DNA of 64,000 bases from Oikopleura dioica. Lineage: Eukaryota > Animalia > Chordata. The DNA is taken from contig OU015570.1 in assembly GCA_907165135.1 (NCBI GenBank), positions 2,067,929 to 2,131,928 of the forward strand, read 5' to 3'. The notes beneath the pieces are model-generated. The model saw nothing but the letters and a program-made list of their open reading frames with translations, did not search any database and was not told the origin of the DNA. Position numbers and translations under genes: made by a program. Within the stretch, counting starts at the first letter, position 1, and the number at the start of each line of letters is the position of its first letter. Shown here piece by piece: positions 2,213 to 46,516 of the stretch.

Positions 2213-2281
2213 TTATTTATGTATACATTCAAATAAATGTTGTTTTATTGAAAAAAGTCTTTTTATTCAATTATTGAAAAA

Positions 2282-8028: not shown

Positions 8029-8144
8029 AACTAGAAATTCAAATTTTAAATGCTGCAAAATTGAAACGCAAGTATAAATTTTTAACATTATGGCTATCTA
8101 TAAATGGTAATTATGGTTAAGGAGATCATTGGGACCATCACAAA

Positions 8145-8597: not shown

Positions 8598-8619
8598 CTC
8601 GACTCTGCTTCGCCTTCTT

Positions 8620-22019: not shown

Positions 22020-22357
22020 TGTTGTAATATGCTTCCTCATTTATGACTTCTATGTACTAAGCTAAGTTCCTGCTAAGTAAGCATACTACTTTTGTATTGA
22101 CGGTAATTCGGTGTTTATTTGTGATTCTGGGGCAAGGCCAGAATGAGGAAAATGGGCATGGTCAGGCACTTTTATAGGAGCGCTCGCTCACAAGTCTCAC
22201 TTCGAGTTCGACTTTATTTCTGAGCTGCAGTTCCGAGTTGAGTGATGAGCTCGCGCTTCGCAGTTGGTGCTCGCGCTCGCCCCTCAGCTTCGGATTCTGT
22301 GAGCTTGGCTCGAGACTCAACTTTCGTTTTTGTAATCATAAGTTATGGACCATAACA
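22020..22357 (-). repeat. 3' LTR (338 bp)
   Basis: No difference from 45451-45788 seen by eye; minus-strand TATAAAA and AATAAA inside. Confidence 0.95.
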
Positions 22358-22730: not shown

Positions 22731-23258
22731 TTACTTGAAGTTGTTTTGCTGCAAAGCCATCGTAAGAAATGCCATCCTTGAGCATCGGCAAAGTATGCAT
22801 TTTCTTGTAAGGCGAGCGAATTGTACGGCGCATTCAGGATGAAAGGAGTGAAGACAGCGCAGTGTTACTGTGGGGTTACCCTTTCGACAAATCGGGCATA
22901 AACGGCCGTTTGTATGATTCTCCATGTGTGTGGTAAAGAGACGAAGTCCCATCGAGTCCCAGCAAGCAGAACAATGATCATATTTTTTGCATCGCTCAAG
23001 GAAGCAGTTTATGTGAAGAAAGTGCCCACATTTTGCTTTGATACCCATCTTCATACTTGATTCACAGTCTCGCATTGAACAAATAACGCAGACTTCGTCA
23101 GGGTTTGGCGTTACTATTCGGCATCCTTCGACGAAAACGAACATGAAAGTTGTTGTAACGAGCCAATTGATGGGTGTTTCTTCGGCTTTTCTATTGACAG
23201 AGCTCGTTCTACCGGCTCTTTCAAGGCGACCACTCGAAAAATCGTTTCTGCTACTCAT
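22731..23258 (-). CDS. Tandem RING-H2 finger protein (putative E3 ubiquitin ligase), intronless
   Basis: CVIC...CGHFLHINC...CSAC and CPIC...CLHSFHPEC...CILC: two complete C3H2C3 patterns. Confidence 0.85.
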   Translation of the reverse strand: MSSRNDFSSGRLERAGRTSSVNRKAEETPINWLVTTTFMFVFVEGCRIVTPNPDEVCVICSMRDCESSMKMGIKAKCGHFLHINCFLERCKKYDHCSACWDSMGLRLFTTHMENHTNGRLCPICRKGNPTVTLRCLHSFHPECAVQFARLTRKCILCRCSRMAFLTMALQQNNFK

Positions 23259-25288
23259 GATCTGAATCAGAGTTCTAATAGTTTCTGTCAGCTAACAATA
23301 ATGGATGTCTTTAACAGCTGAAAATTTCATCGTTTTAGCTATGTTTCTTCAAAAGAAGAGCTTTTAGCAAAAACTGTATAGAAAGAACTATTACAGTAAA
23401 AATTTAGTTCGCTTTCCGTGAAAAAGCGTTGTTGTTCAGAATTTTGTTTTTAAATGCCGTTAATTCATGTTTTAGAACAGAATCTGAATATATATCCTTA
23501 TTTTTTAAAGCTCATCTATCATGGTATTCCTTTTTTTTTTAAGTGAGCCCATAAAATTGAACTTACAGTTAATCTTTAGCGTTGAACTACAGGAGGATAG
23601 GTTTTATCATAATAACAATCTTCTTTTTGACTTTAACGCGAGTTTTCTTTGTGAAAAGAAACACTCGGCGAAACTTTTAAAAGCGTTGATTCTTTTAGTT
23701 CACATGTTCTGATTTCCATCAGATTTTCGATAAAGACAGACGTAAGCTAAATAATTTCAATTATGAACCGTTATGGGCTTGTTTTTTCAAAGAGGAAGAA
23801 AAAGGGAATGAATGAAAGTACTATTTTAATGAATATTTATCTTAAGGGTACGGCTATCGATTTTGAAAGGGGCTTATTCTGATTGTTGAAAATACTTTGT
23901 CGTTTCCTAAATTTAAGGAGGTTCCGTCAGTTTTTGGTGAATTGAGTCTCGTGCGGACCAAATTTTCGAAAAAATCTGTATTAAGGCTAGTTTTTATTAA
24001 ATTAAATGATCTAAGGGGATAAAGTCCGATAAAGATTATTAATTTTGCGCTTTCCGAAAATCAGGTTCGTGCGGATGAAATTTTGTGGCGACACCCTTAG
24101 TCGATTTTACTTGCTGTTTCGAAAAAGTATCAGACTTTGAATTTACAAAGTCGATTTTCGGCAATATTTGAGATTGCGCTCGAAAGATTTTTTTATAAAA
24201 ATTTCTACCGTCACCTGAGCTACAGTCGAAATTCGTAACGAAGAATTTAAAATCGATTGATTCCAAAGCGGGGGTGGGGTTCCTTAAGTCAGAAATTTCC
24301 AATAATTGAACATTATTTTCATCAATGGGTATTCTGATTGGTTCCGAGAAACAAAGATCAAGTTAAGCCAATCGATTTAATTGAAACCCGTGATCTGCGC
24401 TAGAATTGACCCTTTCATAGTTATTCGAGCGTTACGGTGGTGTTCTTCACTACTGTTTGCTCCAAATGATTTTATTGGCCGTAAAATTTTGAACTTCTCG
24501 TTTTCCGCCTTGACCTCTTTATTTTTATGGTTTCTGCCTGAGCGCTTCAACCGAGTTTCTGAATTTCAGAATTTCTCATTATAAAAAATCGGTCAAAAAG
24601 AAAGGCCGTGAAAATGATTTTTTCAAAACTAGAGGTTTAAAGAAGAAACGCAAAGAAAGAATAAGATGGAAGACGAATTTTTGAAAACATCTAAAGTAAG
24701 TCGGGAGCAATTCTATTTAAGCGCATTTTCGGACTAAGTAAAATTTAAGGGTTTACATTCCTTTTAGATTTTCCGGATTTGGCATTTTCCGAAAATGAAA
24801 ATTTCACGAATCAAAGATTACAAATTATCTTACTCCAACCTTTAGTTTCATTCAAACTAAAAGGGGCGACTCTAAAATGGCCAATAAGAAATTCATTCCA
24901 TAATTTGGGCTTAAATTTTCTTAAATCCAATGCAACTTAAAACCCAAGAATTTATTTAAAAATCGACCGAACCCAAAGGGTTTTGCGCTCATAATTAAAG
25001 TAAGCCTCCATCTTTAAGGATACCCCTTACAATTTTCCATTGAACTACGACTCCCGATTCGAATCGTCATTTCAAATATTCGGTTCTAGAAGATCAGCAG
25101 GGGACAAGCACTCGAAAGCAAAAATTCTCCAGGTCACGTGACCTTCACGAGTATTATTTTAAATAAATAGAATCGTTTGATAATCCCTAAAACCTGGAAT
25201 GAGCAGAAATATTGGGCACTAGTTAAGATTTATGTTACCGTTAATGCGAACTTTTTCTTGGCTTGATTTGGGTGGGTCAAAAGTTATT

Positions 25289-25900
25289 TACCATTGGTCG
25301 AGAAAAATATAATTTTCACCAAAATTTCCAAACTTATTTTTTTGTTTTCTCTATACTCTAGATGTGTTCTAGAGGTCCTAAAACCCCCCTTTCGCCAGAA
25401 AAAACCACGTGAAGCAAAGAAAAAATCGATTTTTCGACTCGAAAACTCGAAAATCGGAAATTTTCACCAGCCCATTACTCATCCTTATCGATGAGTCAGC
25501 ATGATGAATCATACCTCATTAGATAGCTCAGAGTCTGAACTTGTACGGACCGTTGAGAAACCGGTGCGGACTTCAACCGGTTGGTCACACGGTAAGGTTG
25601 AAAGTTGGTCAATTTTCCGAAATTTCAAAAAATGCCCATCTTCAAGCGATGATTACTCATACTTCCTGATCACTAATTTTGGCCAGTATATGGCCACTTA
25701 TGGTCGACTTTGGTCAAGTTTGGCCGGAGGACCCCGGAGGACCTCCCTGGTGGAAGACCATCCGCTGGAAGACCAATACTTAGTATTTCAATATATGGCT
25801 GTGCTCGGCCAATTAATGGCCACGTATGGTCAAATTTGGTCTCGTTAGGCCGAAAGTCCTCCGGAGGACCTCCCTGGTGGAAGACAATCTGCTGGAAGTC
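25289..25900 (+). repeat. Left TIR with ~120-bp internal repeats
   Basis: The same spurious ORFs (MVEKNIIFTK..., MMNHTSLDSS...) occur on + here and on - at 39166-39657. Confidence 0.92.
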
Positions 25901-26049
25901 CAAAATTAAATAATGAAATAAAATGCTTGCTGGGCTAAGAATTGAAATCTTCGGCAAACTCTGGTCACGAGAACATTAGAATCATATTTTGCGACTGTTC
26001 TAAGTTAAAAAAACATTTATTTCGACAAGAAGAAAAATCAAAACTCATA

Positions 26050-26780
26050 GAAATAATGAAGTTTGAAAATCGGAGTAGAACTTTGACGTTCCAGGTCGAT
26101 CATAAGAACTGGTTCCGTTGTTGGTGTATGAAGAATAGCCGGCTCTCTGGAATCGCTGTCAGCATATCCAATTCCATCGGTACTGATCCCAACTACCCAA
26201 GAGCTTAGAAAAAGGATGCGCTTTTTTGACTATGTTAAAATCTTATATTTTGAGCTATTAAGGTATCATACATGTTTCTAACATTTCAGCGCAGCCCAAC
26301 CTATCGCGCTCTGAAAGTGGAGCTATTTTTCTCAAGATTTTTGTCTCTGTTCGAATTGGAGCTTCGGTAGCTATTGTGATAACGGAATCTTCGGAGTTAC
26401 TAAGTCCATTTGGGAATTTTATGACTGACGCTATTTTGCCAAATTTAGCAAAGGAGATCCAGCCCTATATAAGCTCTGCAAGATACGAATTCCCTTTTTT
26501 TTTAAATTTAAATGGATGATTGACGAGATTGAGACTTCACTTAGCCTGCTTTGTGTCGAGCCTAGTCCTTATAGTCCCACAGTTCGGGATGGATTTCAGA
26601 GTCTTCACAGATTCGGTTAATTGTTAACTTTGCCTCAGTGAAGATGTTGTTCCGAACTGTAAACTTCCGAGCCGCGGCTATTGAATGAAGTCTACTATCA
26701 TTTCTCTCATTGAGCTCATCGTCGGATGAAATCGATTCAGGATGCGAATAATTATAAAAATCGTCTTCACAACTGCTCAT
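26050..26780 (-). CDS. Orphan multi-exon gene, divergent from the Env-like gene, possibly degraded
   Basis: ORF 26562-26780 (MSSCEDDFY...) followed by further exon-like segments; 3' end uncertain. Confidence 0.35.
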
Positions 26781-27070
26781 TTTTGGTTTTCTCGAACTGA
26801 AGCTTGAAATTTTTTTTTTGTATTCTATGGCTTTGGCTTCCTTTGTTTCAATAAATGGTCATGGTCAAGGCATTAAAATTCATAAATGCAAAAAAGATTC
26901 GGATTAAAAATTTTGAAACTTCAACAAATCGAACAACAGACAAACCAGAGCGATAAAGATTAAATGTGAAAAAGAAATTCGAAATTTCTGAAACAAATAA
27001 ATTAAGCTCGCTGTCATAAGGATATGATTTGATGCATGTTTTTCCAAAATTAAGAATCGAGCGCTAGAAT

Positions 27071-27188
27071 TGACGTCAATGCAAATTGCGCGCTTTGTAC
27101 AAAAAAATGGATCGCCACGATTGCTTGATTTTAAATTTATGAAAAACTGTAACGGTGCCAAAAAATTATCAATTAGTCGGGTATAAAA
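27071..27188 (+). promoter_or_regulatory. Putative promoter of the Env-like gene (CRE-type TGACGTCA and TATAAAA)
   Basis: TGACGTCA at 27071-27078; TATAAAA at 27182-27188, ~40 nt before the ATG at 27225. Confidence 0.45.
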
Positions 27189-27224
27189 GGGTGACGGCTG
27201 ATTTCTATCTTCATCATTCTAGCA

Positions 27225-30200
27225 ATGGGGCTTAAAGCAATCATTTTCATATTGCTGCTTGCCTCCATCTATCTTATTCAACGTGACAATTTCCGTATAG
27301 TTAGAGAAACTTACAAAGAAATTTTTGAAAAAGAGAAACCAAATCAGCGAAGTCGAAGAGAAATTGATGACGAAGACTACGCAGAATGGCTTGCCGTTAG
27401 CTCAACACATCCAGCTCCTAGCGAAAAATCACCAAAACCTCATAAGATTCTTCTATCAAATCAATTTTCGCTCAATGGCACGGTTTCAAATCACAAAATT
27501 TATACATTTAGGGAAGGTTCGATATCATTTAAATTGAAGTTTTTTCTTTTTGAGAAAAGACAGGAAATTTCAAAAATCGTTTATTCATCGATATTGAACT
27601 CTAAGAAGTGCTTTACATTCATTTGCATTAAAAATGAAAATTGACACTCCTATACCTGAGACGTCGAAAAATGATGAAAAGGTTTGTTATTTCTGTTGAT
27701 ATAACGTGCTACCTGAATTTTTAGCTTCTAAAAATACCAACTCTACTCTCAATCATCAGCGAAAAACCCGCGATTTTGGCGAGCTTCTTATTTCAGCGAA
27801 CTGAAGATGGTTTAAAACACTGCGCACTCAATACTGGTATTCCATCAGATGTTTACAAACGCGTTCTCAGAATGATTATGGTGGAAAAATGCGCAAAGGT
27901 TACTCATGACTATAAACCTTCTCTTATAAGATTAAGATGAATGATTTTGAAAAAACAATACACGAGTCGATTAGAACTAATATGGTTGACCCATCTGATC
28001 CATGTGTCGCGGCTTTGATTCACGCAGTGGAAAAGACTCTTAGAAGTTTAAGCCGTGAACATCGTGCTTTGCCAGAAAATTTCCAGGATTTTGTTACTTC
28101 AGGATCAGGGCGGAAAAATCCTTTAAAAACAATGATCAAAAATAAGAAAATTTTTCAAGCTCTTTCAGCACTTTACAATTATCAAAGTCATTCAAGTTAT
28201 TGTGCGACGATCTTCAACTCTTTTCGAAGTTACAAGTCAACTCTAAATATAGATTCGGTCAACAACGAAGACTTTTCCCGAGAAGATGAAGTATAAATAA
28301 GTATTTATTTCAAATAATTAACAAAATTAGTACCTCGGACTCACTACACAGCAACTCAAGTCTCTCGCTTTGCTCATTGATCATTTTGATCATCAACACA
28401 GGTCGTGATTAAATAACATTTAAATAATATTTTTATTTAAACTTCATATTTTTAAATCATCACAGACTCCTTCCGAAAATTGTCTTTCGAGAGTTTCTTT
28501 TCACGTTTAAAACTGGAAGTCGTCGTCAGAGAAGACATCTCTTTTTATCGGGCAGTAATTACTGGAGAATCTCAAATTTACAGAAAGAAATGAAAGGATT
28601 TCAAGCATATGGGTTCATCTCTAATGATTTATTTATTTTATAAGGTTTAATTCATGTTCAACCCATTCAAGATGCTGTTGACTCCGCAATAAAAACAACA
28701 AAAACAAGTTTATTCCAAATCACAGGATCGGGTCGACTCGCAGTTAATCTTTATGTTTGTTCTTGATTAAGTTTCATTATTTTTATATTTTGCCACGATC
28801 CTTTATCTAGATTCTGTGGAAGCAATTTCATCTTCTCTTGATTTTTTCGAGACGAGATCTGCCGTTCGACGAGGTTATGATGACAAAGAAGCATTTTTCT
28901 CCTGTCTTCGACAGCAGGGTCAATTTTGTCATAGCCACTCAAGTTTCCAAAGTTTAAAAAATGTACTTAACTTTAAAAAATAGATTATTTTTATGCATAT
29001 TAAAAGTTTACTTTTAATAAATTTAATCAAAAAATATTTAAACAAGATAAGACATTTTATGGCACTTTTGTATGCTTTTTGTGTCGGATCGAATCCTTAT
29101 TCTGAAGACAACTGCATAGGTTGTAAATTGCCTTATTTATTTATATAATAAATCTATTAGATTTGGTGGATTCTGACTTGGTTCGAGTCTCCTATCAGGG
29201 TGCATCGATCAGCGAAGAGTAAGAATTCAATTTTCTCGTAAATTTTTAAATTTATTAGTGATAATTCAATGGATGCTATCATTGATCTGGAAATTCAAAT
29301 TCCTCTAGACTTGAAGGCTTATTACCAAATAAATTTCGAGTATCTGCCGATTCTGACGCGAATGGGAAATTATGGAATAGTCAAGGACAGTTTGAAATTT
29401 AATTCAAATTATTTTAATTAAAATCGAAAATCGATAGAAATGTTCTTTGATTTGTTTTTTTTTTTATCAAATTGTACTAAAGGAACCATGCTTGGAGGTA
29501 AAAACAATTTATTATCTTTCATTAAAAATTGAAGGACCACATATTTGGAGTTAATGAAACCAAGGAGGGATCAAAGGTGACCAATTTTAAGAAAAAAAAG
29601 TAATTATAGAAGCTCTGACAGTTCTCTTTAAATTATTTTAGTTGTCGAACAAGCACTTGTCATGGGTCATTTACCTTCCTTTGTAATGATGCAGACAAAA
29701 TATACGGATTAAATGAAGATTCTCAGAGTTTGCCAATTTGCTCTCGTCCTCTTATCCAGGTATTTAAAAAACATGATTCCGTTTTTCTCCTTTTTTTATA
29801 TCATAGACGGAGGTGCATTCATATCACGACAAGACGTGTATTGTGACAACAGAAAATCGTGTTCTTAAAGCCGAGGGAAAAAATCTTGTCAATGTCGCCC
29901 AAGAAGATGGAATAACCTGCCTTCCCCATCATAGATCTATTTCTTACAGTGTAGAGTAGGGTCAAAAATCTTCATTCTTAAACATTTTCGGTTTTTATAT
30001 TTCATCTATCTATGATGATTATCAAGATAATCTGACCCGTTTGCAAAGCCGTTGGTGATATGACCGTTCAAATTCCCTCACAACAGTTTTTGTCTCCAGA
30101 AATTTATTTTAGGTAAATCCTTCTTCAGCATTAGACAGATTGCCTTAATTTTACAAAGCTTGGACCTCGCCACACGCTTCGCTTCACAACAAACAAATTA

Positions 30201-30730
30201 TCTACAAACGCTTATTGAGTCAATTGAAGCACCTGAATTCACTTCTTGGTCAACATTTTATGAAAACGGTTAGATTGTTGTAAAATCATAAGATATAAAA
30301 TATTGATTTAGCCAAAAACATCAGTGTTTTCTCGCCGAATCAAATCTTCAGTTTTCTTGAAAAAGGGACGAATAGTGCGCTTCATGCTCTTTTTCCTTCA
30401 TTCGGCGACTCATTTCTCTCTTCCAAATTTCGGAGCATTTTAGTCAAGATTCTTTCCGTTATCTTGATCTATGTTTTTATAAAGGCTTGGTTCCAAAGAT
30501 TTAAGACTTGTTTAGAGATAATTAAACAGCAATGGGAAACCAATTTAAAGGAAATCATCAAAAAATTGCTATTTAGTATCATATTCTGAGCTAGATCTTC
30601 TGTCAAATTTTCTTTATATTGAATGCTTCTCAAGTAGTTGAAACATGACCTTAATGTGATGTTTTTCAGATGCTTGTGTTTCTCGTTTTTGCTTATCTCT
30701 TTTGGCAGTATAAATCGAGGAAAAAAAATG
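27225..30730 (+). CDS. Intron-rich class I fusion (F/Env-like) glycoprotein region: signal peptide to TM
   Basis: Signal MGLKAIIFILLLASIYLI; RSRR (27348-27359); RRQRR|HLFLSGSNYWRISNLQKEMKGF (28521); LLYAFC...NC; IIDLEIQIPL...YYQINFEYLPI (29278-29352); CRTSTCHGSFTFLC...C (29643-29759); heptad-like LDLATRFASQQTNYLQTLIESI; TM IFCQIFFILNASQMLVFLVFAYLFW followed by KSRKK. Confidence 0.7.
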
Positions 30731-32265
30731 GTCCTATTAGTCTTCGAAGTCTACGAGGTCGAGGAAAATCATATATCGGCCCCTTTTTTCAATTTAATGA
30801 TCAATGCGCGACATGTGGATACTTACAGACGAGACAGCATAATTGCGTACCCCTGCAGTGTTGCAGAAATATTTATAATAATATAAATTCGTACAATGAG
30901 TATGTCTCATAATGAATTTCATTTATTCATAAAATTTTAGTCACATTCTTCATCATCACAGACACGATCTTATTGTCGAAGAACAAGTCTATCCTGATAC
31001 CAAGAAAAACTTGGATAATTTTAAAAAAATGCACAAAAGGACGGTATTATCATCATATTTAAAAAGAGATATTTTTGTTATTACCTTGACAAAGCCGGCG
31101 ATTAAATCACTTCTACTGTGATGTCTGCGACGCTGTTTTCAAAAGATCAGCTGTGAATAAAAAGGAACATGAGGCATGCTGCCAGGGGATAATTTGTGAA
31201 GTATGTAAAACACGTATTCCGAAAAAATTCTTCGATGATCACAAAAATTTCTGCAAAGAGTAAGTTTTTTTTGTACTCGCATGATCTTACATTATAAGAG
31301 CTCATTCACCACTGCAAGAAGAGATATTTCCAGATGAACCTGATGACGATGTATTTCTTGATGATTCCGATATTGAGAAAGGACGAATGGATGTTGACAA
31401 TAAATCAGATTCATCAGATGACGATATAACAAAAGAGCTTGAGAAAACTGCGATAAACAGCCAAAGATCCGCGCAAAGCAGACTCAAGTAAAAATATGCA
31501 ACTAGGTTAAAATCACGATTGAACTAGAAAAAAAATTCGAGAATCAACGAACTCATTGACTGGCGAATACGACGTCCAAGCATCGTCTCTAAATATGAAT
31601 GTGGAGCTTAAAAGAAAGAAAATTCAAGATTTGAATCTTACGATTGAAGAGCTTTCGTATGCCGGTCTTATTCCATTCGATCGAATCATGGAGCAAATGG
31701 ACAATCTATTTGAGGCACATGGAAATTTGGCTACACGAATCGTTTTAGCAACCGCATTTGGAAATCAAACAGAAGATTCTCAGAAATATCTTCTGAAATT
31801 TATAAAAGAAGATTCTGAATTCTATTTGAGGTTTACGCCTATCCTTAAAAATTATAAGTTAAAATTAAGCAAATATCGGATTAAACGAGCAATCGAAGAT
31901 TCCAATTCTTTAAAGAACAATCAACCGATTGAGCGTCTTAACAGGGCCGAAAAAGTTCCTGAAGAGCTTCAAATGAAAATATTCATTGCTTGGCTTGAGG
32001 CTTCAGGAAAGAAAGCAAACATTCTCCATCTTTTCAATTTTGGAGTAATTTTGTTGCCTTTAAAAGTTCCAATTCCAAGAGGAAGAACATCTCTTAAGAA
32101 AATAAGTCTCCTGAGTAGGCCCGAAAAGCAGATTCTTCGAACAGTTGGCTTTACAGAACATGTGAAGGAAAAGACGAAAGAGGTGTATGCTGAGACAACC
32201 CAGGAAGGGATAATGCTTCTTTTTTTATTTTATATTGAACAATATCTTTTCAATCAAATCAATTT

Positions 32266-32488
32266 GGCTGATCCTATTTTCAGTAGATTTTTTTCTGGAC
32301 CTATTTTTCAAATCGATTTTTAAGGGTGTCAGGGGCCTTCCGGCCCCTTCAAACCCTGATAAAAACCCGGCCCGGGACCCAGGCTTTCTTTTGGTCCAAG
32401 AAGACACCCTTAATTATTATTCTAACACCCTTAAAAATCGGTTTGAAAAATAGGTCCAGAAAAAAATCTACTGAAAATAGGACTTGCC
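32266..32488. mobile_element. MITE with 9-bp TSD (MULE/Merlin-like), intronic
   Basis: ~65-bp TIRs; aatcaattt duplicated at 32257-32265 and 32489-32497. Confidence 0.88.
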
Positions 32489-32712
32489 AATCAATTTTTA
32501 TCCAAGAAAAGTATATTTGCGTAGCGACAAAAAAAGAATGCATTCAGAAAATACAAGAAAGTGTCTGTGAAGAGCTTTCGCAGTATCTTTGCGTAAAGTA
32601 TAAACCGTTCTTCATTTTTTTCAAAAGGTACAATCTCATAACAGATTTGTTAATAAATTTAAAGTGAGCATGGATTCTGGAAAGATCAATGCTTATGCGA
32701 ATGGTTTCTTAA

Positions 32713-33225
32713 GGGTAAAACATCAAATCGGAGCGGCGCGCCACGCTGGATCAGCGCCCCGCCGTGACCTACTTTTCAAAGGGCCTTAACCTCTGAACGG
32801 ATGAACTTTTTTCAAATTTTGTTTTGGATTAAGATAATTGAAGCCTTATCTCGTCGCTTACTGAAAATAAGCGAAGTCGTAAACTTAGAAATGGAAAAAA
32901 CTGACATAAGTCATTCTAAGGATCATATAAAATTCTAGAGACCTTCAAAATTCGATCTGAGACAACGAACATTTAGTTCAAACGAAGTTCGTATAAAAAT
33001 TGTGAGAGGAGATTGATTTTAACCAACTTATGTCAGTTTCTCCCACTTTTTAGTAAACGATTTCGCTTATTTTCAGTATGCAAAGAGGTAAGGCTTTAAT
33101 TTTGTCAATCCAAAAGAAAGTTTTAAAAAAAGTTCATCCGTTCAGAAGTAACGGCCCTTTGAAAATAAGGTCACGGCGGGGCGCTGATCCAGCGTGGCGC
33201 GCCGCTCCGATTTGATGTTTTTCCC
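32713..33225. mobile_element. MITE, TTAA TSD, long TIRs, inserted in a transposase exon
   Basis: ttaa|gggtaaaacatcaaatcggagcggcgcgcc ... ggcgcgccgctccgatttgatgtttttccc|ttaa. Confidence 0.9.
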
Positions 33226-35211
33226 TTAAGTTTTAAAAAATTTGAATTGGTAAAATCAACATAAAAATGCGTGAATTGCTTCCAATCAAGAATAAAGGTA
33301 AAGATTCATATTAACCATATAATTTAATCTTATATCGAATAATTAAGCCGAAAACATACGAGTCAGTCACTATAGACAAGAATCAGAAACAAAAAAAAGA
33401 ATTGTGCATGTCCCGAAGGGATCGCCAGAAGCTCTCTTCACGTATGAAGAATCGTATCAATTTATCTTGAAGACAATTATAACAGGTATTTTATGAAAAA
33501 ATGAAAATTAGATTCTTAAAATTTGATAATAAGCTCTACAGTCGATTTAAAAAAAATTTAAAGGAGCATACCATTTTCCCGATAAGTCAATTGTACGCCT
33601 CGCAGATTTAAAGGCGACGGCGATCGCTCCGAGAAACGTGAACAGAAATATGCTTTATCAAAGGGTCTTAAATCTTTTTAGTGGGTAAAATTAACTTAAA
33701 ATACATTTTGTTTTAAAATTTAAAACCCTTTGAAAAGTGTGAGCTGGATTATGGGCTTGGCGTTTAAGATAAGCTGACTTTATCGAATTTGAGTTTTCTT
33801 AGGCTGATTATCCGCCCTTTTCAGAACAAATTTTTCCATCACAAGGGCGAAAAAGACTCAATCAAATCATCTTGCAGCACCATCTGTCTCCAACCTTTCG
33901 GCAATTTTCTATTTCTACGATCTTAAAAGTGACAGCTGGAAACGACTTCTTGTGTCTGCACTAAGGAAAAACTATGAAATACAAAGGAAAATAAGGACGA
34001 TTATCATTAACTTTGAATAACTTAATCATATTTTATCAAAGCGAGACAAAATCCTATTATGATACAGTTAGAACAATTTTGCATGGAATCGACATCATAG
34101 TTGCTGACAAAGAAATAAGAACAATTTACAAGTATAGCTATATTTTTTATTTATTAATGTTTTTGAAGCCACATCATCATCAATGTGGATAATTGCAGAA
34201 GAGAGTTCAAGGTCGAGTTATAATAATAATGATAATTTATCAATTTTTTGAAATTATTTTTATAAACTCTCAAAGAATAGATGGGGTCTACCATCCATGA
34301 AGGCTCTTCCTCATCCTGTTGTGGCTATTTTTAAAGCTGCTTTACGACCGGATTCATAAAAATGAGTGTAGATATAACCATATATTAAGAGTTTACAATT
34401 ATGAATCATTTTAAGATGGAAAATCGCTTATTGTTAAGGGTCCTTCGATACAAATTCAAATATAATTACAAATTTAATTATTTGATTTTATGATTCTCTG
34501 TTATAACGTATTCGTAAGGACCATTGATAAGACTCTTTTCATTCTTTTGTTCCAGGATTGTAATTAAAGAACTTATGAATATCATTTATGAGTTTTATTT
34601 AAATAATTAGTCTTTAAGAAAGACTATTTAATTTAAAGTAGCGACTGCAAAAGAGCTCAACAGATTGGAAAGAGGTTACACACTACAAATGCTTATTGAA
34701 GAATTAATATTGAAAGAGCAAAGGGCATTTCTCCAGCGTCAAAAAATAACGTCAATCCTTTCAGGCAAGGGATAACGAAACATGCTCATTGTATTTACGT
34801 CTTGCTTATTATCCCTAAAATAGACGTTATTTTTTAAATCTCGATATTGAAAAATTCGATATGAAATACGAAATCAGTGAAGGAACACAAAGCAACGATG
34901 CAAGAATGATCGCGTTAGATAAAGAAAATAATCGGCTAAAATTAACGAACCACTGGGGTCGGCAAGTGGACGGCTATTTTTTAAGGGGTTCGATCACGAC
35001 TCAAACTATTAGAAGAGCTTAAACTATTAAAATGATTCATGTCCAAATGCTGACCCCAGTTGAACTGGTTATGTTCCTGTTCTGATTGTCTCAACGGCAA
35101 TTTTAACAGATGTCTTATTCAAGAAGGGTGGAATTTTTACAAAATGAGAGAAACTCAATTTAATACTTCTCTTCTATAAACATAATACTAGTATAAAATA
35201 TCCGCTTTAAA

Positions 35212-36584
35212 GACAAAGCTGTACGATTCTCTTCGGATATTAAAGAATCGCGAGTGCCCGTTATCAAAAGTTCAAATGAACCGAAGGATATGTCTGCTCC
35301 CGGTCCATCATTTATCGACCATGAGGATTTATTTGATGATGTCTGGGATTTTCAAGAAGATAAAATAGAGAATGATGCTGATGCGCAGCCTAAACTTGAA
35401 GAAAATTTGGTTAATGTCACCCTTATTCCAAGTCAAGGGTTTCCGTTCACAAATCAAGACAGATTAGATTTCCTGATACAAGAAAAAAGAAAAAGATTGA
35501 GTGATTTTGAGGCGAATCGAATACTTAAATATTTCGAGGTTTTACCTACTAGCCATGTATTTTTACATTTAATTTTATTTTAGCCGAATAAATCCGTTGG
35601 CGTTCATACGCTAGACGGGATTTTGATGAGGTTTAATTCGATTGCTGGAGAAGATACTCTTATCGTCAAAACAACCCAATTTGATGTGTTGTATAATTTC
35701 GGCGTTTTTGGAACACAAGCTTCTTTTACTGATATCGCAAGAGAAAACAACAAAAATATTAATCATGTAAGCGGTCATATCTAAGCATTAAATATTTCTG
35801 ATCAAAATTTTAGGTCAAAAATATACTTATGCCGATTTTCTTCACAAACGAGAACACAAGTAAAAATCATTTCTCTCCAAATCGATTGCGCCTCACAAAT
35901 GAAATTGGTCATTTTATTCTGATCGGTTTTGACATAGAAAACGACGTAATTCTTTGTTTCGATCATTCCAGACAAACGTCGACGAGAGCTTGGGAACTCT
36001 TGATTCCATGGGCAAGACGCAGTTTCGAGCAGGTTTTATAGTATAAACGTTTCTTGGTTTTTTCAAACAAAATTTTTTAAATCAATTGAGTTCATGAAAG
36101 CGTAAAGAAAGCGAAAAACACTATAAAACCTGCTCTCTGAAAATCTTTATGGAAGAAACGCGGAATGTGTCGAAGTTTTGGGACAAGAACAATTCGCGAA
36201 TGATTGTGCGATTCTTTTGATAGCGAATGCAGAAGTCAGGGGATAAGATTTAAAAAATTAAAAGGCGGATTTTGACAAAATAGCGCCAAAATTTTGGTTG
36301 GGCAATTTGTACTTCTATTATTAAAATTTATTATCGTTGATAAAATTTGTAAGATTGGTTTGACTTCAAAGCTAGATCCCCGTTTTCAGTTTTTATATTC
36401 AATCGTCAGGTGATTATAATTCTATATATACCCTATTTGGGGCATTCTTGATTTAATAACAATTTTAAAGGTCGCTTCTCGTGGTATTTCTTTTACTCAG
36501 GAGACGACCAATTCCCTACGAATTCGACTTAAAGATATCTGGCTTACTAACATATATCGCAAAACATGTTCTTTTGTCGAATAA
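35212..36584 (+). CDS. Ulp1/SENP-like (clan CE, family C48) cysteine protease domain, multi-exon
   Basis: RLSDFEANRILKYF; YLMPIFF; GHFILIGFDIENDVILCFDHS (His 35910, Asp 35961); QEQFANDCAILLIANAE (Cys 36205); FTQETTNSLRIRL; stop at 36582-36584. Confidence 0.8.
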
Positions 36585-36739
36585 AAATATCTGTTTTTCT
36601 TTTTTAATATAAAAATAAATCTCTACTTTTAAAAGTACAAGTGGCTATTGTTTCTCTTTATTATTAAAAATTCTACGGTATTCTAAAAAAGTAAATACAG
36701 TACTAAAAACAAATACTAAAAATACTAAAAACAGTAAAT

Positions 36740-37527
36740 TCACTTCCCCTTTTTCTCGAAATATAAAGGATAAATAAAACCTTCCATTTTTTCGCTCATC
36801 CAAGGCGTCTTCTCTTCTTCTTTGTCCGAGAAGTCTTCATCATCGAAAGTGATTCCCATTGGCATCTTTTAAAAAATAAAATCGGATAAATTGATTATTC
36901 CCACCTCATCAAGAACAATCAAAACAGGACAATTATTTCTGTCAGTATTCACATTTGTTAAAATTTTTTTGAAGATATTTTTGGAAAGGTCCAATTGCTT
37001 CTGGTACCATGGCGGAATTGACCAAGGTCCTACTGTTTTACCAAAGCTGTCCTCGTTTTTGGAACGGTAACAAGTAGAGAACTTTCTTGGAGGGGAGTAT
37101 TGTTTCCATTCATCGAAAGTTCCTAAATTCCGATAATAACTTTAAATGAGTTTAATTTTTTAAGCTTTTACCTATTTTTATTGTTTTGTTTGGTTTATTC
37201 TTGAGGATTATTTCGGCCAATTCTGTTTCTCTTGTATAGTCCCAAGCCCCTCTGACATAAGAAATAAAAAAAATTTCTCTGCTTTTCTTCCCTGCTCACT
37301 CGCGCAAGAATTGTAGTATCCATTAAAAATTCGACGCATGAATTTTCACAACGAGCCTGAATTTTTGAAATTTTTTTCCAGATGAGGTCAGAGTCATCAT
37401 AGGCTATTCGAAATTCCCCCAATAAAGAGAAATGAATGAAAAACAAATCGCAGATTATAGTCTGGACTTGGCGATCTGTGTAGTAAACCTTAGTAGAGTT
37501 CCGAAGAGCGTTAATAAAAAGTTGCAT
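36740..37527 (-). CDS. Orphan multi-exon gene
   Basis: ORF 37195-37527 plus downstream exon-like segments bounded by short AT-rich introns. Confidence 0.45.
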
Positions 37528-37879
37528 TGTTTTAAGAAATATTTTTAATTTAATTAAAGCTTAGAGGTTTCTTCCAAATCCGATATAAATTTGCTAAGAA
37601 TGTTCTTTATTCTCCGATTTTTGAAGAAAAGTGTCTTTTTATTTACGCTCTAATAATTCTGCCTTAGGTTTTCTGCAAAAATTACCAAGACCAGTAGAAA
37701 ACATGCTATTGAATTGGCAAGAAAATTCGAAAACGCACTAGGTCTCCTCATCGGGCCTATGGACTTTTTCCAGGAAAAAATAATACGATGCAAGACAGGG
37801 ATCTTAATTTTTTATGCAAAAACTTCGGAATTGCAATGCGATTGCAATATTTTTACGAAAATTTAAAATCCCTGATGCC

Positions 37880-38702
37880 AGCGTATTTTATGGGAGACAG
37901 GAGTTCAAAATTATGCAGAGTTTGTTCTCCTCGAAACGGCACGAGAAATGAATGATGGGAGCATCAAACGCAGGTTCTCAATTGCGTCAACTGAAGTTGG
38001 GGACATACTTATTCCTGATGAGAACTGGCGATCAAACGAGAATACGCACATACTGTCTCATATCTAGGGCCGACGCGTAAAAAATCAACCCCCAGAAAGC
38101 ATCAAGGTAGAGAGCTGAAACAACGTGATATAATGAAGTTCGACCCTACTAAAAAAATTGCTATTGAAAATTTTTTGGTTTGGTCACGTGGTCACGTGAT
38201 ACAGACCTCCGAAAAACTAAAAAAAGCTTGACGACCTTGAACGCATGATCAAGGTCGATCAGCTCATATCTCAGAAGAAAGAGCTAAAAAAGTTATTCTT
38301 ATTAATATTTTTGGTGGCGCAATCACGTGAGACAGTAGAAAGGAAAAAAGATGACCCTGAATTCAAGGTCGTCAAGCTTTTTTAGCTTTCCGGAGGCCTG
38401 TATCACGTGACCAAACCAAAAAATTTTCAATAGCAATTTTTTTAGTAGGGTCGAACTCCATTATGTCACGAAGTTTAAGCTCTCTACGTTGATGCTTTCT
38501 TGGGGTTGAATTTTTACGCGTCGGCCCTACTCATATCTACAAATTAAAAGATCCGACCCTTATGCTTAAGGATGCCATGATTTTGAAAGGCCACTGGACG
38601 CCAGCCCGATTGACGCAAAAAATAAAACAAAAATTTGAAGAGGAAATGAAGAACATCCTTGAGGAGATCGGAGAATACTTGTCGACAGAAAATGAGGATT
38701 AA
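37880..38702 (+). pseudogene. Orphan ORF interrupted by a hAT MITE
   Basis: Removing 38065-38529 and one TSD gives an open frame ...NYAEFVLLETAREM...HILSHI|YKLKDPTL...EYLSTENED*; 5' end unclear. Confidence 0.5.
38065..38529. mobile_element. hAT-type MITE
   Basis: TIR tagggccgacgcgtaaaaa; 8-bp TSD ctcatatc (38057-38064, 38530-38537). Confidence 0.92.
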
Positions 38703-38969
38703 AAATTGTCATTCATTATTTCTGTTCAAATTGTTTTTTCTTTTCGGTTTTTCATCTTCGTTCTTAAATACTTGTTCATTTTTTTGATAAATATATGTTT
38801 GTCTATTGAGATTTTCTTAATTTGAATGTGGTCTGTTCTGCAGAAATTTGAAGTATCAACACTTTTTTCGCAGGCACTTGCGACCGACCGATTTATTGCC
38901 GCACCGGTTTAGTATTTTTTCTAGAAAGAACAGATATTAAGCTTCTTATCAGTTAACCTTTTGAAAATA

Positions 38970-39662
38970 CAGCCTGACTAGACCAATATTGACTATAGGT
39001 GGCCATAAATTGCCCGAGCACAGCAATCTATTGAAATTCTAAACATTGGTCTTCCTGCAGATTGTCTTCCACCATAGAGGTCCTCCGGGGGACCTCCGGC
39101 CTGACTAGACCAATGTTGACCATATGTGGCCATAAATTGGCCGAGCACAGCCATATATTGAAATTCTAAATATTGGTCTTCCAGCGGATGGTCTTCCACC
39201 AGGGAGGTCCTCCGGGGTTCTCCGGCCGAACTTGACCAAAGTTGACCATAATGGCTATATACTGGCCAAAATTAGTCATCAGGAAGTATGAGTAATCATC
39301 GCTTGAAGATGGGCATTTTTCGAAATTTCGAAAAATTGACCAACTTTCAGCCTTACCGTGTGACCAACCGGTTGAAGTCCGCACCGGTTTCTCGACGGTC
39401 CGTACAAGTTCAGACTCTGAGCTATCCAATGAGGTATGATTCATCATGCTTACTCATCGATAACGATGAGTAATGGGCTGGTGAAAATTTCCGATTTTCG
39501 AGTTTTCGAGTCGAAAAAATCGATTTTTTTTCTTTGCTTCACGTGGTTTTTTCTGGCGAAAGGGGGGTTTTAGGACCTCTAGAACACATCTAGAGTATAG
39601 AGAAAACAAAAAAATAAGTTTGGAAATTTTGGTGAAAATTATATTTTTCTCGACCATTGCTA
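38970..39662 (-). repeat. Right TIR with ~120-bp internal repeats
   Basis: Reverse complement of the left TIR. Confidence 0.92.
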
Positions 39663-41623: not shown

Positions 41624-42367
41624 CTATTTAGTCCATGTGAAGGTTTTTCGAACTGCAGTTTTTAATTGACTGAAAGTGATATCATCATCGTCAATTCCAA
41701 GTAGGCGTGTCATCTCAGCGTATTCTTGTTGATTGCAGTTCTTCATTGTCATAACCTGAAGAATGCAAACCGCTTCGGTGGCCCTTGGGTCCTTTCCTGT
41801 TGTTGTTTTGTATTTCGAGCAGAGACGCAAGAAGAACCGCATAAGCGTTTCATTTTGGCCGCGAGTCATCCTCAGCACATCCGTTGCCGTCGCTGATCTG
41901 GAGGGACCCAGAAGGGCTCCGACGGAATCCACAAATGATTCGAAGTCTTTGCGTTCGCTATCTTCTATGATTTCGTCGATGTAACGATCTCGAGGTCGAA
42001 GCGTCATGATGAGCAAGTTCATCATCTGTTTGTCAGACAGCCCTGACTCGCGAGCGTATTTGAAAGCACTCTTGTTTCGGTTGAAATGTTCCCAGAACGT
42101 CAGGTTCGGCTCAGTCCAATTCCGAAGTCCATATTTTTCCGGGCTTGATATGATGACTTTGTCGGGATCCCGCTTCGGCAATTCTGTTCCTTTGTGTCCT
42201 TGCTCACCGTCTGAGAGAAAGGTGTTCGTCTGAGTCCCTCTTGTGTTTGTTCCGCTGGTTTCAGGCTCAGGATCAGTGAGCGGGACATCGAGGTTAGTCT
42301 TGGTAGATTTGAATTCGTTGTTTCGAGAAGACATTTTTGGGTTTCGCAGTCTAAATAAGGAATCCAT
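41624..42367 (-). CDS. gag: Gag-like capsid protein of the non-autonomous LTR element
   Basis: Sense to the element; MHR-like MTRGQNETLMRFFLRL; helical CA-like pattern. Confidence 0.6.
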   Translation of the reverse strand: MDSLFRLRNPKMSSRNNEFKSTKTNLDVPLTDPEPETSGTNTRGTQTNTFLSDGEQGHKGTELPKRDPDKVIISSPEKYGLRNWTEPNLTFWEHFNRNKSAFKYARESGLSDKQMMNLLIMTLRPRDRYIDEIIEDSERKDFESFVDSVGALLGPSRSATATDVLRMTRGQNETLMRFFLRLCSKYKTTTGKDPRATEAVCILQVMTMKNCNQQEYAEMTRLLGIDDDDITFSQLKTAVRKTFTWTK

Positions 42368-42568
42368 AGTTAATATGTCTTTTCTTCCCTTCTGTTAATC
42401 TTTGCAAGCCTTAAATTTTGTGAAAGCAGTGACGTTTAACTGTTGCAAATTGTGGAAGACGAAGTTCTTTGTTGATAAGCTCGGTGCTTCTGAAGCCTTT
42501 TTAGCTTAATGAGGTAGTTAGGCTTAATAATTAGTGTTAAGTTACATTGATTGTAACACTTACTCATG

Positions 42569-43589: not shown

Positions 43590-44870
43590 GCCCTTTTGTC
43601 AAAAATCGAGAACTTCGCTTGAGGCCGCAGCCAAATTAAATCGAGACCGGCCAAATTTGGCAAAAATCAAGGGCTCCGCTTGAGGCCGGGGCCGAAATAA
43701 CTTAAGATAGGCTAATTGGCAACAAAGTCTAGGGCTCCGCCGAAGCCAGCCCAAAAATCAATTTGAAATGAGCCTTTTCTGCAGAGCTCCTTCGGGGCCC
43801 GGCCGTAAAACGAGTTAAGATGGGTCTTCTTGGCATAACTTCTGCATGGCCCGGCCAAAAATCAATTTAAGATGGGCCTCTTTGGCAAAATTCTGCAGGG
43901 CTCCGCCGGGGCCCGGCCGAGAATCAAGTTAAGGTCTGCCTTTTCGGCAAAAATTCTGCAGGGCTCCGCCGGGGCCAAGCCGAAAATCAAGTTTAGATGG
44001 GCCTTTTCGGCAAAAATCCTGCAGGGCTCCGCCGGGGCCCGGCCGAAAATCAAGTTAAGGTGGGCCTTTTCGGCAAAAATTCTGCAGGGCTCCGCCGGGG
44101 CCCGGCCGAAAATCAGGGTTAAATGCGCCTCCTCGGCAAAATTCTGCATGGCTCCGCCGGGGCTTGGCCGAAAATCAAGTTAAACTGGCCTTTTCGGCGA
44201 AAATTCTGCATGGCTCCGCCGGAGCCTGCTCAAAAAATAAGTTTTAATGGGCCTTTTTTTTGGCAAAAAAATTGGCAGGGCTCCGCCGGGGCCTGGCCGA
44301 AACTCTATATAAATTGGGCCCTCTCGGCAAAATTCTGCAGGGCTCCGCCGGGGCCCGGCCGAAATTCAAGTTTAAATGGGCCTTATTGGCAAAAATTGGC
44401 AGGGCTTCGCCGGGGCCTGGCCACAATTCTATAGAAAATCGGCCTTCTCGGCAAAATTGGGCAGCACTCCGTCGGGGTCCGGCCTTAAATTAAGTTTCAA
44501 ATATGCCTTCTCGGCAAAAATTTGCGCAGGGCTCCGCCGGGGCCGCAGCCAAAAGTCATTTTCAATACGCCTCTTTGCTAAAAATCGGGCAGGACTCCGT
44601 CGGGGTCCGCCTTAATTTAAGTTTCAAACTTGCCTTTCTGGCAGAATTTGCGCAGGGCTCCGCCGGGGCCTCGGCAAAAATCAAGTTTAAATACGCCTTT
44701 TGGCAATAATTGGGCAGGACTCCGTCGGGGTCCGCCTTAATTTAAGTTTTAAATAAGCCTTTTGGCAAAAATTGGGCAGGACTCCGTCGGGGTCCGCCTT
44801 AATTTAAGTTTTAACAATGCCTTTTCAGCAAATTTGTGCAGGGCTCCGCCGGGGCCTCGGCCGAAAAATA
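43590..44870. repeat. ~60-bp GC-rich minisatellite, about 20 copies
   Basis: Unit ggcaaaaattctgcagggctccgccggggcccggccgaaaatcaagttaagatgggcctttt, degenerating toward both ends. Confidence 0.92.
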
Positions 44871-45436
44871 ACTTTAAAACCTAGCAATCGCCCTTACCCC
44901 GACCCGAAGACCTCTCCTAAAGGCGTGTCTACCGGATAGCCCCTCTAAGAGCGAGCTCCCGATCCTTACACACAGCCCTGGAGGTAAGCCTTTCTCCAGC
45001 AAAAGAGCTTGCGACCCGTTAACGAAATTTACCTCACTCAGAGCGTAACGAGCGTACATTCGGAAAGTGGTCCGCCCCAGCCGAAACATCCTTCAAGCAG
45101 ACCCTGCCGGGCCCTAGGGATCACATGGCCGTCTCATCGTGGTGGTAAACCCGTATCCCCTTTAGTTTTTGGACTAACCTGGTTTTGGCGGCTTCTATTG
45201 TGGAGCTTGAAAATCGCGAAAATTCCTTTTTGCTGTGTCTTCTATCTCGGGATCGGCGATAATGGCGCAGATTTCGGATTTCCAAATCGTAATTACCCAT
45301 ATTCGTTGTGCATTCAGCCATGACTGCAGATATTTGTAGAATCAGGTGCTATTTTTGTTGACAGCTATGATTGATCAGGAATCGTACCAACGGTCATCAA
45401 TCATGATCGGAGCAGCAGGCGGGCAGGTTCGTAAAT

Positions 45437-45450: not shown

Positions 45451-45788
45451 TGTTGTAATATGCTTCCTCATTTATGACTTCTATGTACTAAGCTAAGTTC
45501 CTGCTAAGTAAGCATACTACTTTTGTATTGACGGTAATTCGGTGTTTATTTGTGATTCTGGGGCAAGGCCAGAATGAGGAAAATGGGCATGGTCAGGCAC
45601 TTTTATAGGAGCGCTCGCTCACAAGTCTCACTTCGAGTTCGACTTTATTTCTGAGCTGCAGTTCCGAGTTGAGTGATGAGCTCGCGCTTCGCAGTTGGTG
45701 CTCGCGCTCGCCCCTCAGCTTCGGATTCTGTGAGCTTGGCTCGAGACTCAACTTTCGTTTTTGTAATCATAAGTTATGGACCATAACA
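45451..45788 (-). repeat. 5' LTR (338 bp)
   Basis: Direct repeat of 22020-22357. Confidence 0.95.
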
Positions 45789-46516
45789 CTAGTAACTGGT
45801 TTATGATTGTACTTCGAAATGGAGAGTGGCGCGCGCAGCCAATTAGAGCGAGGGGAAAATCTCACTCAGCCCATCGCTCATCCTATTTTACACGAGAAAT
45901 TTTGTCGACAGCTTGGACGAAATCTAACTAGGATTCTCCCTCGCTCTAATTGGCTGCACGCGCCACTCTCCATTTCGAAGTACAATCATAAACCAGTTAC
46001 TAGAAGCCGTAACTTTTAATATTTTTACAAAATCCTCCGCTAGATTGGAGATAAGGCTTCAATCTTTCATATCATCAATCCAGATTTACCTTTTTAATGG
46101 GAATTTTTAGAGAACAATGGTCTGTTTTATTTTGAAGTCGATTTTTAGGTATAAACACTATAGAAAGTACTAAAAATAAGGGAATTTTCGAAATCTACGC
46201 TAGATTTTAGGTAGGGTTCCTTTGAAAAATGAAAAATTCGTAACAGGGATTCGGCGCTACGAAAGTTCAATATTCAAGGCTATATCCTTAAAATCTGAAA
46301 AATGTCCGGAAATATGGACTCCGGAAATTTGGAAACCAACTGTACATCCGGTTCTAGAGATAATGAGATTTTTGGAAATATTCAATTTTTTGCAAATTTT
46401 TCTCAAGAAGCGACGTATAAATTTTATTTCGCACTATCTATGTCTCTTTTCTTTCTTTGAATACAACGGATCTAGTTTGACTTCAAAAATTATAATTATT
46501 AGTTATTTTCCTGTTA

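Follow-up and report, generated by a model that had tools for sequence, protein, structure and literature searches.

The window analysed, 64,000 nucleotides of Oikopleura dioica DNA, holds an intron-rich gene for a predicted glycoprotein with the features of F-type viral envelope proteins, called here the F-like gene. It lies inside a TIR element that is nested in an LTR element in which no pol was found. The original prediction did not mention the TIR element, which is the immediate container of the gene. The features of the locus are as follows.

22020–45788, minus strand: surrounding LTR element, with identical 338-nt LTRs at 22020–22357 and 45451–45788 and CTAG flanks
22734–23291: RING ORF in the LTR element
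25291–39660: TIR element of 14.4 kb, with 643-bp TIRs that are 94% alike, and TA flanks
25291–25935, plus strand: left TIR, with TA directly outside at 25289–25290
26040–26780, minus strand: modelled gene of a kind not recognised, divergent from the F-like gene
27225–30589, plus strand: F-like glycoprotein gene, about 19 exons and about 810 aa, predicted intact
30670–31491, plus strand: gene for a zinc finger and acidic tail, four modelled exons, start approximate (zf-met E 5.6e-4, just under the cut-off)
31595–35179, plus strand: candidate intron-rich transposase-like gene, about 600 aa, splicing of its core approximate, possibly broken
35290–36600, plus strand: Ulp1/C48-protease-like gene, motif-based, with no Pfam match
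36780–37527, minus strand: modelled intron-containing gene of a kind not recognised
37876–38702, plus strand: gene of a kind not recognised, start approximate, coding sequence split by a MITE
39012–39660, minus strand: right TIR, with TA directly outside at 39661–39662
41627–42394: gag-like ORF in the LTR element, with no Pfam support

The two TIRs are identical in 605 of 643 columns, and five reads of run X11 begin at 25291 with unrelated flank; judged from its sequence, the 14.4-kb element is likely to be a cut-and-paste DNA transposon. Its other genes have the same intron style and density as the F-like gene. The candidate transposase has D-N-C..EFK, H-K-N-E..DG and terminal CSCxxC motifs, which we take to be those of a transposase; neither Pfam nor Atlas supported the assignment, and one of its exons fell in two hypothetical Atlas clusters at 0.76. 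In the protease-like gene His, Asp, Gln and Cys motifs follow in what is presumably the order expected of a Ulp1/C48 protease. A Pfam search of 25 ORF pieces of the TIR element recognised no pPolB, integrase, ATPase or capsid, keeping in mind that short exons lower its sensitivity and that capsids are often missed, though the same check did find pPolB elsewhere in the window. The Polinton-like region at the start of the window is an element of its own, and tblastn matched it to none of the 10 exons of the F-like gene that were tried.

The LTR element reads on the minus strand, with a PBS-like site beside 45451 and a polypurine tract beside 22357, and the F-like gene is thus antisense to it, as had been proposed. 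Antisense, intron-rich and enclosed by TIRs, in an LTR element where no pol was found, the gene is not the env of that element, and it does not occupy the Ty3/gypsy env slot, a sense ORF after pol inside the LTRs. Long residence in a DNA-replicated element had been argued from the introns. The TIRs and their TA flanks favour such residence, but the intron argument is by itself weaker than it was put, because an antisense passenger retains its introns through retrotransposition; it is the TIRs that carry the case.

A splice-aware dynamic programme found an unbroken path from an ATG at 27225 to a stop at 30589 with 17–19 introns of 30–100 nt, in keeping with the more than a dozen short introns originally noticed. 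This path initially scored +15.3 against −54 to −118 in shuffles (42 of 50 shuffles gave a path and eight none) and −94 for the reverse complement, with penalties that had been adjusted after looking at an earlier run. Rescored with a codon table trained only on the neighbouring genes, it reached +81 against −29 to −93 in shuffles (a path in 32 of 40, none in eight) and −66 for the reverse complement. The gene is real, its structure being beyond what chance gives in shuffled sequence. Twelve introns are identical in the last two of three model runs and eight in all three, the latter being those on the plus strand at 27682–27724, 27899–27936, 28291–28330, 28402–28465, 29120–29160, 29498–29534, 29760–29806 and 30269–30311. 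The model is approximate at the junctions near 27516–27609, 28725–28811, 28942–29047, 29385–29642 and 29948–30159. For the exon at 28811 the ILWKQ frame, chosen in two earlier runs, was ruled out by the codon score and by a relative, P0001, introduced below. The gene had been placed at 27225–30730; it is present there, but 30589 is the simplest end for its coding path, and a hydrophobic exon at 30670 more likely opens the next gene than closes this one.

A near-identical stretch is present in six DNA runs of three studies, one of them possibly the source; no RNA run was among the matches listed. When four RNA runs were compared with the element, 4, 12, 4 and 0 reads fitted, all partially and with no splice joints. 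With mismatches at 5 of about 54 TIR letters in the few reads that fitted, the animals concerned may belong to another population, and the reads speak neither for nor against expression.

Along the predicted protein the following features were placed.

27225–27281, plus strand: predicted signal peptide, from hydropathy only (KD19 2.1 at residue 1)
27348–27359, plus strand: first furin-type site by motif, RSRR, residues 42–45
27937–28290, plus strand: largest exon of the N-terminal part, matched by relative P0002; predicted all-helical at low confidence (pLDDT 52)
28521–28596, plus strand: central furin-type site RRQRR (28521–28535) and candidate fusion-peptide segment
28645–28962, plus strand: candidate heptad repeat A and following helix with two Cys, in the DSVEA frame that is kept in relative P0001
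29259–29385, plus strand: IIDLEIQIPL...YLPI exon, with the strand-pair motif at 29278–29352; relative P0003 fits up to the modelled donor
29642–29948, plus strand: two modelled exons with six clustered cysteines
30136–30268, plus strand: candidate heptad repeat B, the model's top heptad window (0.71)
30437–30493, plus strand: predicted transmembrane segment (KD19 2.27), then a tail of about 30 residues

RRQRR, the strand pair, the Cys cluster, the second helix and the transmembrane segment are thus all on the plus strand in the order first described. R-x-[RK]-R sites occur in the modelled protein at residues 42 and 348, and the part ahead of RRQRR has about 330 aa, more than is usual for an F2 subunit. 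By hydropathy only, the KD19 maxima are 2.1 at residue 1 and 2.27 at residue 760, with no value above 1.36 between them; 408 residues separate the cleavage site from the transmembrane segment. The heptad windows at residues 377 (0.54) and 677 (0.71) are candidates by raw score, and the six clustered Cys, at offsets 223–299 from the RRQRR site, are candidates for the conserved C-terminal cysteines c1–c6. The I-P-L..Y-L-P strand pair followed by the six-Cys cluster fits what we take to be the F-type pattern. The aromatic/Gly segment reported after RRQRR is present as HLFLSGSNYW but is weakly hydrophobic, with KD values of 1.0 over 6 residues, −0.05 over 10 and −0.7 over 20. The analysis supports a product that is, as far as its predicted features go, an apparently intact type I membrane glycoprotein encoded by an intron-rich gene.

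Homology searches, all with exon pieces or read-through frames, did not place it in a family. Pfam gave no F or Env family, such as Baculo_F, Gypsy or Fusion_gly, for 12 pieces, three read-through frames and nine further pieces that included three relatives, and PDB sequence searches with exon pieces gave no fusogen. In word searches of protein databases the queries were the largest exon, three post-furin exons read through as one, and the first ORF, and none of their 73, 419 and 13 candidates scored; Atlas had no usable match for the strand-pair exon. Among 1.84 billion representatives there was no fusogen and no ordinary host membrane protein, the outcome that had been named as counting against the proposal; three unnamed exon-sized relatives alone matched. 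An exact look-up of 10 ORFs found 0 of 10 in the collection, metagenomes had no loci for the exon protein or for the TIR-tip pattern, and viral contigs had none with the window's pol or with alignments A1 and A2. Single-sequence folds of two fragments were of low confidence (pLDDT 52 and 53) and uninformative on the four-domain head-and-stalk fold of F-type fusogens, the confident part of the second being intron-derived; the fold of the largest N-terminal exon had no match under E 1.4 among viral folds. PDB profile matches to AcrIIC4 and a silkworm storage protein (E 0.8–6) were taken as chance, as was an 18-residue match to the transposase domain PF21789 (E 0.015; 15.8 bits, cut-off 24); under E 0.05, Pfam gave nothing else for the post-furin region.

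The feature order is in common with baculovirus F and paramyxovirus/pneumovirus F, and so, presumably, is the strand-pair and Cys pattern. The match originally drawn to baculovirus F, errantivirus Env and paramyxovirus F stands for feature order but has no counterpart in any profile, PDB or fold match, and F-type (class I) homology is plausible as a match of pattern. In contrast to the baculovirus and paramyxovirus proteins, exon pieces find neither a PDB nor a Pfam match, no virion genes were recognised nearby and the insect consensus is lacking. That consensus, for the fusion peptide of insect Env and group II baculovirus F, is GxxxxxGxxxKxxxGxxDxxD (PMC6085415), of which the post-furin segment, compared by eye, fits the first Gly only. 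The exact F-X-G of Tor, as given in the extracts drawn on, is absent from that segment as well.

The three relatives, P0001–P0003, are 58–79% identical to the F-like protein, and two of them end at its modelled intron borders. Conservative changes make up 26 of the 42 differences, against a neutral mean of 11.8 and with none of 5000 simulations as high, although the test is biased upward because phmmer selected the matches; for the N-terminal pair alone the count is 9 of 23 (p 0.13, not significant). Purifying selection on the gene is the best reading of these comparisons. The post-furin exons are better kept (83% and 72%) than the N-terminal exon (60%), which is the polarity described in extracts on Iris/env. 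The relatives sit on contigs of 2.7–3.5 kb, so the link between the gene and the TIR element rests on one copy.

The F-type Env of Ty3/gypsy errantiviruses, including the Tor Env of Oikopleura, is alike in its signal peptide, central furin site, Cys-rich C-terminal domain and helix ahead of a single transmembrane segment (PMC13524379 and PMC4402516, in extract), and extracts on F-type Env name this feature set and six invariant C-terminal Cys (PMC1262188; PMC13524379). Those Env genes are described as unbroken ORFs that accompany gag and pol in LTR elements. The F-like gene sits instead in a TIR element, is split by about 18 introns and encodes a further furin site, an N-terminal part that is long and a fusion-peptide segment that is weak; the likeness seen is one of features. 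Drosophila Iris and a mosquito domesticated env are likewise env-like genes outside a retroelement, with a better conserved C-terminal half and six C-terminal Cys (PMC1262188, in extract). As extracted from that source, Iris is syntenic, intronless (Iris-B has one intron) and without a furin site, having lost the cleavage site and fusion peptide, in contrast to an intron-rich gene with two furin-type sites in a mobile-looking element. Nematode Maverick MFUS-1 (10.1101/2022.07.12.499685) and Teratorn (PMC10175614) are, in the parts of the sources drawn on, TIR-bounded DNA elements with an envelope glycoprotein gene. MFUS-1 belongs to class III (gB-like), and its element also has genes for polymerase, integrase and capsid, according to the same extract; Teratorn carries a whole herpesvirus (PMC10175614). 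The F-like protein, by contrast, has the look of class I, and neither a polymerase nor a capsid gene was recognised in the 14.4 kb.

On the best reading, a DNA transposon in a larvacean-type genome carries a gene that derives from an env and is under purifying selection. The proposal that a TIR DNA transposon carries a spliced gene for a furin-cleaved type I glycoprotein, with an F-type (class I) viral envelope protein as its likely ancestor, is judged about evenly balanced between true and false. The env would have been captured from an LTR retroelement or a virus, for which larvacean LTR elements with F-type Env (PMC4402516; PMC13524379, in extract) are a plausible donor pool, and would have acquired introns in long DNA-level inheritance under host splicing. 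Its product would enter the ER, be cleaved at RSRR and RRQRR and trimerise, and its two helices may close up as a six-helix bundle, pulling membranes towards each other; it would act at the cell surface by an F-like hairpin. The site of action would more likely be cells, or in trans the particles of other elements, than a virion of its own, since no capsid, gag or polymerase gene was recognised in the TIR element. In Oikopleura, expression of the Tor retroelements is described beside the germ line (PMC4402516, in extract).

A bolder proposal, and a rather doubtful one, is that a capsid-less cut-and-paste transposon family in larvaceans keeps a functional class I fusogen as a core intron-rich gene for cell-to-cell passage. 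It would imply passage from soma to germ line, or into the particles of other elements, and a way of life that has an envelope but no reverse transcriptase, polymerase or capsid. F-type envelope genes described so far are in LTR retroelements, viruses and a few nearly intronless domesticated genes, and the fusogens of DNA elements described so far are in Mavericks (class III, with capsids) and Teratorn (a whole herpesvirus); searches of the open-access literature gave no account of a small TIR transposon that carries a many-intron class I env. If confirmed, such a gene would show a new route for envelope genes between element classes and record heavy intron gain by an env, and it would offer a testable chordate candidate for a DNA transposon that moves from soma to germ line.

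An unlikely though appreciable alternative is that a host gene which arose from an env and, like Iris, was domesticated long ago has been captured once, as a passenger, by a DNA transposon. It would have a host function, such as blocking the receptors of Tor-type retroelements or a cell-fusion step, for which fusion activity is perhaps dispensable. Some 18 introns and purifying-type change suit a host gene, the weak fusion-peptide segment recalls Iris, in which cleavage site and fusion peptide are lacking (PMC1262188, in extract), and TIR elements have been described as taking up host cargo that contains introns (10.1101/2022.07.12.499685, in extract). The other genes of the TIR element are equally intron-dense, though, so the introns do not mark the F-like gene as foreign to it, and annotated proteins yielded no full-length relative of the sort expected for a conserved host gene, a weak objection given exon-piece queries. 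That the gene encodes an unrelated fast-evolving membrane glycoprotein of host or transposon, resembling class I fusogens by coincidence, seems improbable. Many secreted proteins have furin sites, helices and Cys clusters, post-furin hydrophobicity is weak and no search gave a homology or fold match; against this, no ordinary membrane-protein family matched either, the strand pair and then six-Cys cluster presumably fit the F-type pattern, and six features over 400 residues agree in order and spacing with F-type Env as described in the extracts.

The antisense gene might also be an env serving the gag-bearing, pol-less LTR element, the TIR element having entered an ancestor of it and now co-retrotransposing with introns kept. 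LTRs identical over 338 nt, beside TIRs that differ by 6% and three MITEs in the inner element, make the inner element look older than the LTR insertion. This is nonetheless very improbable: introns are likewise modelled in the TIR-element genes on the minus strand, which have the sense of the LTR transcript, and the ages call for no 24-kb RNA if an aged copy jumped by cut-and-paste into an LTR element that was young. Of the MITEs, two are placeable in introns of the transposase-like gene and the one within the gene at 37876–38702 lies at 38066–38529 with an 8-bp duplication.

The F-like gene, an intron-rich glycoprotein gene on the forward strand, lies where repeats and flanks reveal three elements, one inside another. 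Its immediate container, which the original prediction did not mention, is an element with terminal inverted repeats (the TIR element).

21727-46291: MITE-like element flanked by TTAA, outermost of the three; its central CTAG took the LTR element and a small hairpin element (45789-46003)
22020-45788, minus strand: surrounding LTR element; 338-nt LTRs identical, TG...CA, CTAG on both sides
22734-23291: its RING ORF, near the 3′ LTR (PF13639, E 1e-7)
41627-42394: its gag-like ORF, a label given without Pfam support
43600-44880: 62-63-nt tandem repeats in its leader
25291-39660: TIR element, 14.4 kb, within the surrounding LTR element; TA flanks on both sides
32267-32488: MITE with 9-bp duplication, inside the TIR element
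32713-33224: MITE with TTAA duplication, inside the TIR element
38066-38529: MITE with 8-bp duplication, inside the TIR element, breaking the coding sequence of its last gene

The surrounding LTR element inserted mid-way in the MITE-like element; no pol was found in it, it is non-autonomous, and 23-nt repeats lie upstream of its polypurine tract. The terminal inverted repeats of the TIR element are identical in 605 of 643 aligned columns, and five RNA reads from one sequencing run (X11) start exactly at 25291 with unrelated flank, independent support for that terminus. Apart from 5 differences, these reads match the repeat over its first 54 bases (25291-25344) before continuing into other sequence: elsewhere there is a short relative of the element's end, and it is found in poly(A) RNA. 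As its inverted repeats are 6% diverged and it holds three MITEs, while the LTRs are identical, the TIR element looks older than its surroundings, and the simplest reading is that an aged copy jumped recently into a young LTR element. That the gene instead serves the LTR element as an env in antisense, the whole 24 kb having been retrotransposed with antisense introns retained, is very unlikely, and is weakened by the minus-strand genes of the TIR element also being modelled with introns.

The F-like gene is genuine. Splice-aware dynamic programming found an unbroken coding path from an ATG at 27225 to a stop at 30589, at first with 17 GT-AG introns. A second run, its length prior tightened and GA donors eased (both after the first run), gave 18 introns and a score of +15.3, against -94 for the reverse complement and -54 to -118 for 42 of 50 shuffles, 8 having no path. 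With a codon table trained solely on neighbouring genes the third run scored +81 (reversed, -66; shuffles, -29 to -93 in 32 of 40, with no path in 8). Eight introns are identical across all three runs, which have 11 acceptors in common, and 12 are common to the last two; several junctions are provisional. A separate codon test chose the modelled frame for 13 of the 15 exons left out, and it favoured the DSVEA frame at exon 28811 (+4.2 versus -1.9). Introns at the locus are 30-100 nt and AT-rich, some with GA donors, which PMC4402516 reports in O. dioica; these traits suggest a larvacean host of Oikopleura type. The proposal of a gene with over a dozen short introns is borne out by a path of 17-19 introns scoring far above shuffles. 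An exon at 30670-30909 opens with a hydrophobic stretch and basic residues and then turns Cys-rich; it could anchor the zinc-finger protein in the membrane, or else give the F-like gene an alternative end.

The working protein model is 809 aa, and the spliced model recovers the predicted RRQRR (28521-28535), strand pair, Cys cluster, helix and TM. There is a signal peptide predicted at the N terminus, furin-type sites RSRR at 42 and RQRR at 348, a predicted TM at 760 (408 residues from RQRR) with a tail of ~30 residues, and three N-glycosylation sequons. Four cysteines precede the RQRR site and eleven lie from there to the TM, six of these clustering at offsets 223-299 and one sitting in an uncertain exon. 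Mean hydropathy after RRQRR falls from 1.0 for 6 residues to -0.05 for 10 and -0.7 for 20. The part ahead of RRQRR is ~330 aa, with one N-terminal exon predicted all-helical (pLDDT 52).

F-type Env is described as having a signal peptide, furin site, fusion peptide, conserved cysteines, C-terminal helix and TM (PMC13524379; the same order in 10.1101/2025.02.07.637071), with six invariant C-terminal cysteines and a better-conserved C-terminal half in the env/Iris family (PMC1262188); the order and spacing of features in the F-like protein agree with these accounts, and larvacean LTR elements contain F-type Env (PMC13524379). That much of the class I F-type reading stands; what did not follow was a fusogen match or a fit to the fusion-peptide consensus. 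Pfam, PDB sequences, the protein database, Atlas, 1.84 billion representatives and viral folds gave no fusogen match, blanks that weigh little because the queries were short exon pieces (36-140 coding residues) or intron-laden read-throughs. The I-P-L...Y-L-P strand pair followed by a Cys cluster we take to resemble the Baculo_F and gypsy Env pattern, a lead and not a test. The segment after RRQRR misfits the insect Env consensus GxxxxxGxxxKxxxGxxDxxD, as given in PMC6085415, and lacks the exact F-X-G of Tor3b/4b. F-type ancestry is probable on these features, retained fusion activity is evenly poised, and the protein is classed neither in the errantivirus Env family nor in that of baculovirus F.

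Queried with a single read-through frame (27931-29391), phmmer gave three matches of 53-69 aa among 1.84 billion representatives: P0001 (79%), P0002 (58%) and P0003 (70%), singleton Logan gene calls on contigs of 2739, 2739 and 3493 bases. They are sized like exons. P0001 begins to match at the modelled acceptor 28810 and P0003 ceases to match at the modelled donor 29385, so these intron positions are older than the split. Conservative changes (BLOSUM62 above 0) make up 26 of 42 differences against a neutral mean of 11.8, a count reached in 0 of 5000 simulations, a test that overstates the case because score-picked matches lean conservative; by pair they are 7/8 (p 0.0004) and 10/11 (p 0.0002), with the N-terminal exon at 9/23 (p 0.13). 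This pattern fixes the reading frames and, for the half that follows the furin site, points to purifying selection. Between 78 and 98% of sampled words from the gene are present in six DNA runs of three studies, one run possibly being the source.

Six further genes with the same intron style are modelled in the TIR element: a zinc-finger gene (zf-met, E 5.6e-4), a transposase-like gene of ~600 aa with a terminal CSCxxC and a catalytic region whose splicing is tentative, one with His/Asp/Gln/Cys motifs arranged as in Ulp1, and three of unknown kind. The motifs of the ~600-aa gene resemble those of DDE transposases; Pfam and Atlas supported neither this label nor the Ulp1-like one. The MITEs at 32267-32488 and 32713-33224 can be placed within introns of the transposase-like gene. 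None of the element's 25 ORF pieces was recognised as coding for a polymerase, an integrase or a capsid.

Beyond gene structure, motifs, position and conservative divergence, which are observed, a captured env would have acquired introns during inheritance as DNA; its spliced product would be glycosylated and furin-cut, and would be displayed in trimeric form, with two helices that could collapse into a hairpin. Because the TIR element shows no recognised virion genes, the protein would act on cells, or on particles from other elements, and the beneficiary may be either the transposon, through cell-to-cell spread, or, by analogy with Iris, the host, through interference with Tor-type elements. 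That the gene is F-derived and belongs to the transposon has about an even chance of being correct; a domesticated host gene captured once by the transposon is a distinctly less probable account, and a look-alike membrane protein that is not F-derived is unlikely. The nearest cases are MFUS-1 of nematode Mavericks (a class III fusogen in an element with capsids), Teratorn (likewise a DNA element with an envelope glycoprotein gene) and Iris. The open-access literature searched, including 10.1101/2025.08.15.670264 (subscription papers, Repbase Reports and some supplements lying outside this scope), yielded no example of a class I env that is rich in introns and carried by a small TIR transposon.

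Two further regions of the window were noted.

47723-54210, minus strand: second LTR element; LTRs identical over 258 nt
1448-8600: Polinton/Maverick-like region, with pPolB (PF03175, E 8e-11) at 5938-7245

The second LTR element has one 1461-aa gag-pol ORF with RT, RNase H and integrase, overlapped in another frame by a 281-aa ORF that reads like an integrase tail, and no env was seen in it. In the Polinton/Maverick-like region a 680-aa ORF upstream of pPolB looks like its frameshifted N-terminal part, and beyond the region, as far as ~21500, run minus-strand ORFs abounding in Pro/Thr/Ser tandem repeats, which are possibly cargo.
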